DNA from: a virus
Lineage: Duplodnaviria; Heunggongvirae; Uroviricota; Caudoviricetes
Direction: 5' to 3' (one strand)
Virus record (IMG/VR): IMGVR_UViG_2695420708_000013
Location: 1 to 17,722 of that record
DNA length: 17,722 bases
Position 1 is the stretch's first letter. Every line of letters starts with the position of its first letter. A program made the position numbers and the translations under genes. Positions 7,777 through 8,513 of this stretch are shown one piece after another. The notes below the pieces were generated by a model, which saw only the letters and a program-made list of their open reading frames with translations, did not search any database and had not been told where the DNA came from.

Positions 7777-7805
7777 TTGATTTAATTCACAAATAAAACT
7801 ATAAT
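7777..7805 (+). promoter_or_regulatory. Candidate sigma70 promoter for the cargo methyltransferase gene
   Basis: TTGATT (7777-7782), 17-bp AT-rich spacer, TATAAT (7800-7805). Would give a very short leader to ATG 7818. Confidence 0.4.
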
Positions 7806-7817
7806 ATGGTGAAATTA

Positions 7818-8474
7818 ATGAAAAAAAACACAGATGATGGGGCTAAAATTTACACACCACTTACCCTAAAGCTTTATGACTGGTGGGTTTTGGGAGTATC
7901 AAATCGGCTTGCATGGGGATGTCCTACAAAGGAACACCTTCTTCCACACTTTCTGGAACATTTAGGTAACAACCATCTGGATATTGGTGTTGGAACTGGG
8001 TTTTACCTTACTCACGTACCTGAGAGTAGTCTGATATCTTTAATGGATTTGAACGAAGCTAGCCTGAACGCGGCATCTACAAGGGCTGGGGAATCAAAAA
8101 TTAAACATAAAATTAGCCATGATGTTTTTGAACCTTATCCCGCGGCGTTACATGGTCAATTTGATTCCATTTCCATGTTTTACCTTCTTCACTGCCTGCC
8201 TGGAAATATATCTACAAAAAGCTGTGTAATACGCAATGCGGCGCAGGCCTTAACTGATGATGGAACTCTATACGGAGCCACAATTCTTGGCGATGGAGTT
8301 GTGCACAATAGCTTCGGTCAAAAACTGATGCGCATTTACAATCAGAAAGGCATCTTTTCAAACACAAAAGATTCCGAAGAAGGCTTAACACATATACTCT
8401 CAGAGCATTTCGAGAATGTTAAAACCAGGGTTCAAGGTACTGTAGTAATGTTTTCCGCTTCAGGGAAAAAATAG
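7818..8474 (+). CDS. Class I SAM-dependent methyltransferase-like protein (cargo gene, function unknown)
   Basis: ORF with motif I LDIGVGTGFYL, acidic post-I residue (LMDLN) and motif II-like DSISMFYLLHCLP; markedly lower GC than the flanking phage genes. The ORF track starts at ATG 7806, but that abuts the putative -10, so I favour ATG 7818. Confidence 0.7.
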   Translation: MKKNTDDGAKIYTPLTLKLYDWWVLGVSNRLAWGCPTKEHLLPHFLEHLGNNHLDIGVGTGFYLTHVPESSLISLMDLNEASLNAASTRAGESKIKHKISHDVFEPYPAALHGQFDSISMFYLLHCLPGNISTKSCVIRNAAQALTDDGTLYGATILGDGVVHNSFGQKLMRIYNQKGIFSNTKDSEEGLTHILSEHFENVKTRVQGTVVMFSASGKK

Positions 8475-8482
8475 CATCCAAC

Positions 8483-8513
8483 CGCAGCACGTTCTTGCTT
8501 AAGACGTGCTGCG
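8483..8513 (+). terminator. Stem-loop downstream of the methyltransferase gene (possible terminator, no T-tract)
   Basis: 11-bp perfect inverted repeat CCGCAGCACGT ... ACGTGCTGCGG, 9 bp after the TAG stop. Confidence 0.3.

Follow-up and report, generated by a model that had tools for sequence, protein, structure and literature searches.

Escherichia coli K-12 carries, between tfaD and tfaX of the cryptic prophage DLP12, the pseudogene ybcY (b0562), annotated as a putative S-adenosylmethionine (SAM)-dependent methyltransferase. The ybcY-tfaX spacer was listed as a constitutive binding site of the RpoD holoenzyme by Shimada et al. using systematic evolution of ligands by exponential enrichment, with the predicted promoter TTGATT-17-TATAAC, and it also binds H-NS (PMC3946193). 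Here we describe a counterpart of this gene in a stretch of 17,722 nucleotides from a tailed virus of the Caudoviricetes (IMG/VR record IMGVR_UViG_2695420708_000013, positions 1 to 17,722; henceforth the window). Judged by its sequence, this methyltransferase gene is an intact orthologue of ybcY. The family is already catalogued and uncharacterised, and finding another copy of it adds little. The initial annotation of the window could not assign the open reading frame (ORF) to a named family; this is superseded by its placement in the ybcY / PHROG 2132 family, which is annotated in thousands of genomes. The protein matches the PHROG 2132 profile ('unknown function') from end to end (1-218 of 218 positions, E = 1.8e-156). 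Across 864 nt, which take in the promoter and a 3' hairpin, the window and K-12 loci have 98.5% identity, and both are linked to tfa fragments. They differ in that a 2-bp deletion in K-12 removes the Met5 ATG, where an A-run begins, and shifts the frame, whereas the window copy is intact, and in the -10 hexamer, which is TATAAT in the window but TATAAC in K-12 and JJ1886. Further, the host element is lambdoid in K-12 but a P88-like myovirus prophage in the window, and the upstream tfa fragment is deleted in the window only. In the window the start codon opens onto a run of eight A residues (ATGAAAAAAAAC, 7818-7829) and the K-12 deletion lies exactly there (locus L004, ~10805); this run may be prone to slippage.

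With a query of 901 nt that has the gene at its centre, coverage is at least 80% in 3794 of the 5426 complete E. coli genomes; BLR(DE3), the one B-strain genome listed, has a short partial match only. All 18 full-length E. coli/Shigella copies that were fetched are intact and differ by 1-3 substitutions (<1%), a number too small for the ratio of nonsynonymous to synonymous substitution rates (dN/dS) to be informative among them. The cluster of proteins at 90% identity has 6589 member sequences, and the exact protein is found in E. coli/Shigella assemblies, where some copies adjoin genes for ipaH-type effectors. Among phages the gene is carried by 15 of 50,697 records, all of them Escherichia phages and most 45-49 kb in size; of these ev243, whose gene map was inspected, is lambda-like. 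A 4.3-kb contig of a metagenome-assembled genome labelled Bacillus sp. (L023) encodes a protein 100% identical to the 218-aa query, with DNA 99.6% identical over 847 nt, most likely through mis-binning or contamination.

Beyond E. coli, no fewer than 590 GTDB species have relatives; these species belong to the Pseudomonadota, Cyanobacteria, Acidobacteriota, Chloroflexota, Actinomycetota, Bacillota and Myxococcota. Below E = 1e-30, clustering at 50% identity gives 198 clusters. The full-length chromosomal orthologues from Salmonella (STM1638), Enterobacter, Yersinia, the Pseudomonas syringae group, Dyella, Nostoc and others are 42-68% identical to the window protein and share with it the invariant Y24, W37, H57, motif I, D81, S121, H129, G157 and D189. 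Unlike the window gene, they are stable, solitary chromosomal genes rather than prophage cargo, and are likewise uncharacterised. In the neighbourhoods of 76 species loci no neighbour family is common to more than five, and those seen are, by eye, unrelated housekeeping genes; therefore the enzyme works without a dedicated partner. In Salmonella and Yersinia the gene stands alone, and the dN/dS values of 0.03-0.09 obtained in comparisons of Salmonella subspecies and of Pseudomonas species show that the family is under purifying selection. Salmonella STM1638 is a conserved chromosomal gene adjoining rydC and cybB. It lies (6001-6663 in L007 / L008) immediately upstream of the small RNA gene rydC, which activates cfa, a gene for another SAM-dependent methyltransferase acting on lipids, and this adjacency may be a coincidence. 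The initial annotation had held that strong homology to a housekeeping enzyme in a conserved chromosomal context would speak against its proposal: relatives of 56% identity do occupy such a non-prophage context in Salmonella (STM1638), but no characterised housekeeping enzyme is among them.

With the annotated alternative start at ATG 7806, the ORF spans 7806-8474 on the plus strand and encodes 222 aa. Nearly all homologues, including those outside E. coli, begin at Met5 (ATG 7818), as does the PHROG 2132 profile of 218 positions. This agreement, together with the position of the -10 hexamer, which excludes ATG 7806 from the transcript, indicates that the true coding sequence is probably 7818..8474 (218 aa). 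Thus, of the earlier description of a single-domain protein of 222 aa, the single domain stands while the length is likely to be 218 aa. The product is a single-domain class I (Rossmann-fold) SAM-dependent methyltransferase. It exceeds the gathering thresholds of the generic class I Pfam models Methyltransf_12, _23, _25 and _11, and these four matches dispose of the possibility, raised at the outset, that profile searches would find no methyltransferase fold. The motifs first noticed by eye are equally sound: LDIGVGTG (residues 58-65) is motif I with the GxGxG pattern of the SAM-binding loop, and the acidic residue after beta-2 is D81, which is invariant in alignments of 29 and 66 sequences. 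Structure prediction, which the initial annotation had proposed as a check, bears it out further: the AlphaFold2 model built from 29 homologues (predicted local distance difference test score 88.8, predicted template modelling score 0.86) shows the seven-stranded Rossmann-like sheet of methyltransferases with N-terminal helices in front of it. This N-terminal lid bears a conserved YDWWVL...SN...W.C motif.

The gene is preceded, as was originally noted, by a near-consensus sigma-70 promoter-like site, TTGATT-17-TATAAT (7777..7805, plus strand), recognised as a sequence match. This is the sole match of at least 10/12 on either strand of the 17.7-kb window; the chance of such a match in the 78 nt upstream of the ORF is P ~0.005, and the promoter is conserved within the mobile block described below. 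Its -10 hexamer ends one base ahead of ATG 7806; therefore the transcript would begin at ~7811-7813, excluding that ATG. The GGTGA at 7808-7812 is thereby lost from the promoter's own transcript and would serve as a Shine-Dalgarno sequence for read-through transcripts only. Directly 3' of the stop codon lies a strong hairpin (8482..8514) with an 11-bp G+C-rich stem (-23.9 kcal/mol, z = -5.0). It belongs to the conserved block, has no U-run on the plus strand but a U6 run ~10 nt beyond on the minus strand, and was not called by a terminator scan. Scans of the window for Rfam families and tRNAs gave no matches.

The relationships of the protein to enzymes of defined substrate are distant and, while they name no subfamily, point to a small-molecule or lipid methyltransferase. 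PDB sequence searches with the single sequence and with a 66-member profile give weak matches confined to the SAM-binding core, the best being CysG/BelI (E = 6e-6) and NodS. No NCBIfam family exceeds its cut-off for the protein or any of 66 relatives, and the commonest sub-threshold matches are BioC, CpaM, UbiE, RquA and NodS. Among the viral structures of BFVD only generic methyltransferases were recovered. CysG and BelI (PDB 9FCD, 9FCE) are metal-dependent carboxyl O-methyltransferases of beta-lactone biosynthesis (PMC11408123). The window protein has ~15-18% identity to them, its H129-C130 aligns with the His-His of their His-His-Asp calcium site (PMC11408123), and D189 is invariant, a resemblance that we treat as a lead only. 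It differs in having a His-Cys pair in place of His-His, and its gene lacks the context of a biosynthetic gene cluster. Among the phosphobase and phosphatidylethanolamine N-methyltransferases that were compared, PfPMT and R-type PmtA, the latter (PDB 8YS9; PMC11446283) is the top Foldseek match in the PDB (template modelling score 0.65-0.69). In both, an N-terminal helix bears a conserved Tyr and a His follows closely on beta-4: Y16, Y24 and H129 would sit roughly where PmtA has Tyr10, Tyr17 and His117 (PMC11446283), again as a lead only. The Legionella PmtA model of NCBIfam gives a weak match of 15.6 bits against a cut-off of 390, and membership of the R-type PmtA / phosphoethanolamine N-methyltransferase group is accordingly set aside. 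Some distant relatives are fused to cytochrome P450 or RCC1 domains, a mere hint towards small hydrophobic substrates.

Taking these observations together, we favour, at about even confidence, the view that the gene encodes an independently expressed metabolite or lipid methyltransferase of the YbcY / PHROG 2132 family that is carried as prophage cargo. In this scheme the gene would be held as a moron in a tail-fibre/invertase recombination hotspot of E. coli/Shigella prophages, here within a defective P88-like prophage. In the lysogen it would have its own transcription from TTGATT-17-TATAAT, which H-NS probably dampens, and a very short leader would precede the start of translation at ATG 7818. 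With SAM as the donor, the enzyme would methylate not DNA but a small molecule or a lipid, at an O, N or S atom. The substrate pocket is probably formed by the N-terminal helical lid (Y16, Y24-D25-W26-W27, W37 and C39) together with the post-beta-4 H129-C130 and D189.

Several points weigh against this proposal. The structural neighbours have no clear best match and cannot name a subfamily, and a profile of the N-terminal lid alone finds nothing among PDB sequences even at E = 10. The RNA and protein methyltransferases CmoA, Trm9, METTL6, RsmC and PrmC score only slightly lower than the small-molecule enzymes. On the side of expression, use of the promoter is a prediction, the leader would comprise ~6 nt before ATG 7818 with no Shine-Dalgarno sequence, and the 3' hairpin has no U-tract on the coding strand. 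Part of the gene's wide prevalence might stem from hitchhiking on prophage remnants that have become fixed. Finally, in the literature on ybcY, STM1638 and prophage methyltransferase morons we found no functional study, substrate, product or phenotype.

An alternative, which we regard as possible though doubtful, is that the substrate is an RNA or a protein: the enzyme might modify a nucleotide in a tRNA or the ribosome, a protein of the host surface, or the tail fibre that the phage encodes next to it. The weak matches to RsmC, RlmA, PrmC, CmoA/CmoB, Trm9 and METTL6 fall in the score band of the small-molecule enzymes, linkage of the gene to tail-fibre and tfa genes is constant, and the family has a median isoelectric point of 8.9. 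Conversely, the best matches are small-molecule enzymes, there is no RNA-binding or additional substrate-recognition domain, and the window protein itself is near-neutral, with an isoelectric point of 6.9. Further, the homologues in at least 590 species are solitary and unlinked to fibres, and the gene has its own promoter and an orientation opposite to that of the fibre genes.

The methyltransferase gene is linked to a mobile block of 1168 bp (7763..8930, plus strand) which contains the promoter, the gene, the hairpin, the 3' fragment of a tfa gene and the 5' fragment of an invertase gene, and ends in a crossover site. Prophage loci of the lambdoid and Mu-like types in E. coli/Shigella match the block at 99.7% identity, and the P2-like L015 does so at ~97%. 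All the aligned copies start at 7763, and the others that were examined all have the same tfa fragment upstream of that position. In the window the block has the invertase of the phage itself on one side and the invertible fibre segment on the other, is flanked by the crossover sites A and B, and its left end is a joint of GGTAACGCCGT with ATTCATCG at positions 7762 and 7763, 14 nt upstream of the -35 hexamer. This joint is private to the window: an exact search found it in none of the 5426 complete E. coli genomes, IMG/VR or the JGI metagenomes. The simplest history has two steps, namely gain of the cassette via recombination in shared invertase/fibre sequences, followed by a private deletion that spared the promoter. 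Simple site-specific insertion of a 1199-bp A-B unit was considered and rejected, since the other copies keep the upstream tfa fragment, so that the left joint looks like a later deletion. The arrangement in the window is thus a private rearrangement of modest interest. Separately, some E. coli/Shigella assemblies (L017, L019) have two or three copies of the block amid repeated invertible fibre cassettes with several crossover sites, in a shufflon-like array.

Such mobility raises the alternative that in E. coli the gene is a neutral passenger, encoding an active enzyme but silenced by H-NS and prevalent by linkage to the cassette and to fixed remnants. This we consider rather unlikely, although the block with its one fixed left end does travel among lambdoid, Mu-like and P2-like prophages, the sub-1% divergence of the E. 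coli copies suggests recent spread, and H-NS binding was reported for the K-12 spacer (PMC3946193). K-12 has moreover lost the gene through the 2-bp deletion, and BLR(DE3) retains the short partial match alone. Against neutrality, the 18 full-length copies are without exception intact, even in decayed prophages such as that of the window with its gpD nonsense codon and apparent H frameshift, and the near-consensus promoter was kept despite the private deletion joint so close to its -35 hexamer.

The site of the cargo has also to be considered in light of phage defence, as the neighbourhood of tail-fibre genes and an invertase is a known hypervariable hotspot (for P2-like hotspots, bioRxiv 10.1101/2024.10.15.618418), defence genes being typical of P2-type hotspots such as Z/fun. 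A defence or counter-defence role, in which the enzyme would modify a molecule needed by superinfecting phages or by host immunity, is also in keeping with the moron architecture and the very wide distribution in prophages, yet we deem it improbable. The sole PADLOC match, to mad2, is insignificant (E = 0.0026, 14.6 bits), and the gene is a single one without a partner. Further, the Salmonella and Pseudomonas orthologues are stable chromosomal genes without linkage to mobile elements, on which purifying selection is strong, and the features of DNA methyltransferases are lacking. The last of these points makes an orphan epigenetic or anti-restriction DNA methyltransferase extremely improbable, frequent as such enzymes are in phages and despite the SAM-binding Rossmann fold: the protein has neither a (D/N/S)PP(Y/F/W) nor a PCQ motif, its 218 aa leave no room for a target-recognition domain, and no DNA methyltransferase is among the top structural and PDB sequence matches. 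The initial statement that it is no classical DNA methyltransferase is upheld by these absences and by structural neighbours that are small-molecule or lipid enzymes. On motif IV, PCQ with ENV, and the target-recognition domain, membership of the N6-adenine, N4-cytosine and C5-cytosine classes is rejected.

The prophage around the gene is P88-like (Xuanwuvirus, Peduoviridae), with 93-94% identity to P88, 520873 and P884B11 over 78-82% of the window. These closest phages lack the methyltransferase, and have the order sheath-tube-E-T-gpU on the plus strand, a DNA invertase on the minus strand, an invertible segment that encodes two alternative fibre tips along with tfa genes, and H-I-J-W-V on the minus strand. 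In the window, gpU (6539-7033, plus-strand module) lies to the left of a full-length serine DNA invertase of the Gin/Cin/Pin type (7069..7674, minus strand; Pfam Resolvase 1.5e-50, and HTH_7). The latter is 98.5% identical to the P88 invertase, whose equivalent start is at 7656. Crossover site A, TTATCTAAAACCTCGGTTTACAGGAA, is at 7711..7736 on the plus strand, and an identical site B in direct orientation (8910..8935, plus strand) forms the left end of the invertible fibre segment. Site C (11826..11851, minus strand) is inverted relative to both, has four mismatches and lies inside the tail-fibre gene. A direct repeat of 300 nt brackets the methyltransferase. Its left copy (7463..7762) comprises the 5' end of the invertase gene, the crossover site and 26 nt beyond, its right copy lies at 8662-8961, and the last 186 nt are 100% identical. 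Downstream of the hairpin is the 3' remnant of a tail-fibre-assembly (Caudo_TAP) gene (8551..8626, minus strand), 96% identical to a Caudo_TAP ORF in L012 and annotated in JJ1886 as an incomplete tail fibre assembly protein. It is overlapped by a truncated second copy of the 5' part of the invertase gene (8568..8855, minus strand), with an ORF at 8673-8873 (66 aa) that ends in a stop. This copy has a match of 4e-15 to the N-terminal part of the Pfam Resolvase model and, by tblastn, 73% identity to residues 1-99 of the P88 invertase; the duplicated 5' end may duplicate the recombinational enhancer too.

The invertible segment (8936..11825) encodes two alternative C-termini of the fibre and a separate tfa gene for each of them, as shown by Pfam matches, and both of its orientations occur among genomes. 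The sites B and C of the window have the parental combinations of half-sites. In L020 (3102, 6018) and L021 (3091, 6007) the segment is flipped and bounded by the reciprocal hybrid half-sites TTATCTAAAACC..GGTTTACGAGAA and TTATCGAATACC..GGTTTACAGGAA; these demonstrate directly that inversion of the tail-fibre switch takes place in nature. From the layout of the sites, inversion between A and C would put the methyltransferase downstream of the constant part of the fibre and truncate the fibre after 19 extra codons, and recombination between A and B would excise a circle of 1199 bp. Parts of a lambdoid side tail fibre in L021 (918 aa, phage_tail_N) are 99% identical to the middle and the tip of the P2-type fibre of the window (11831-12500 and 8906-9823), and it follows that fibre modules have been exchanged between myovirus-type and lambdoid prophages. 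The prophage itself is probably defective, as the homologue of P88 gpD (191-1300, 98% identity) is interrupted at codon 125 by an in-frame stop (REVS*HDV; 926-928, minus strand). The reading frame of the tail-fibre gene H changes at ~12836-12857 (minus strand). Its similarity to P88 H and lambdoid stf is found in frame -1 as far as 12836 and thereafter in frame -3, open from position 12857, and two overlapping ORFs result (12314-13708 and 11067-12353); the change of frame is either a frameshift or a sequencing error.

The initial annotation's view of the gene as a moron is supported by its own promoter, its deviant G+C content and its absence from P88, 520873 and P884B11. The G+C content is 0.411 (0.35 at third codon positions), against 0.547 in the sheath-to-gpU module and 0.570 in the baseplate/fibre module. 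The contrast of an AT-rich gene with a GC-rich backbone is hence real (0.41 against ~0.55-0.57), but the dip is not specific to the gene and spans the whole of ~7500-11700, including the invertase, the methyltransferase and the invertible fibre segment. As to the terminator usual for a moron, the strong hairpin is present but the coding-strand U-tract is not.

The wider import of the locus lies in its family. Two false leads are cleared, the gene being neither a DNA methyltransferase nor a homologue of P2 Z/fun. What remains is a very common accessory enzyme of E. coli, intact in ~70% of complete genomes, solitary, under strong purifying selection in other genera and broken in K-12, such that K-12 offers a natural null background and a cheap route to the function of the ybcY family. 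On a more speculative note, we consider it possible, if no better than tentative, that the YbcY family acts as a lysogenic-conversion enzyme which methylates a lipid of the host envelope or a diffusible small molecule. Jointly with that conjecture, and with similarly low confidence, we would nominate as targets the head group of phosphatidylethanolamine, a metabolite with a carboxylate, or a toxin made by a competitor. Were this true, its effect on E. coli physiology could have gone unnoticed as the K-12 copy is a pseudogene and BLR(DE3) has the short partial match only, even while ~70% of natural isolates carry an intact copy with a near-consensus promoter.

Finally, the locus may be set beside the Z/fun accessory locus of P2, to whose position the initial annotation had likened it. 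The gene does lie at the junction of the fibre-assembly genes and the FI-U tail module, but that module is inverted relative to P2 and the neighbours differ. Nor is it directly flanked by the sheath/tube module, as had been supposed, its immediate neighbours being the DNA invertase (7069-7674, minus strand) and the 5' fragment of an invertase. The likeness is confined to the module junction, which in P2-like phages is known to hold variable cargo, often with a DNA invertase (bioRxiv 10.1101/2024.10.15.618418). The differences are that, with the P88-type FI-U module inverted, one flank consists of gpU and the invertase, and that the other consists of the invertase fragment and the invertible segment. 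As the neighbours differ, and no P2 record among the 50,697 phage records matches the methyltransferase protein by tblastn, we reject membership of the Z/fun locus. Rather, and again in distinction from Z/fun, the gene came with an invertase/tail-fibre cassette common to lambdoid and Mu-like prophages; lambdoid phages have this block between int and their side tail fibre genes. This architecture shows cargo genes moving between unrelated phage types along with the tail-fibre/invertase cassette.

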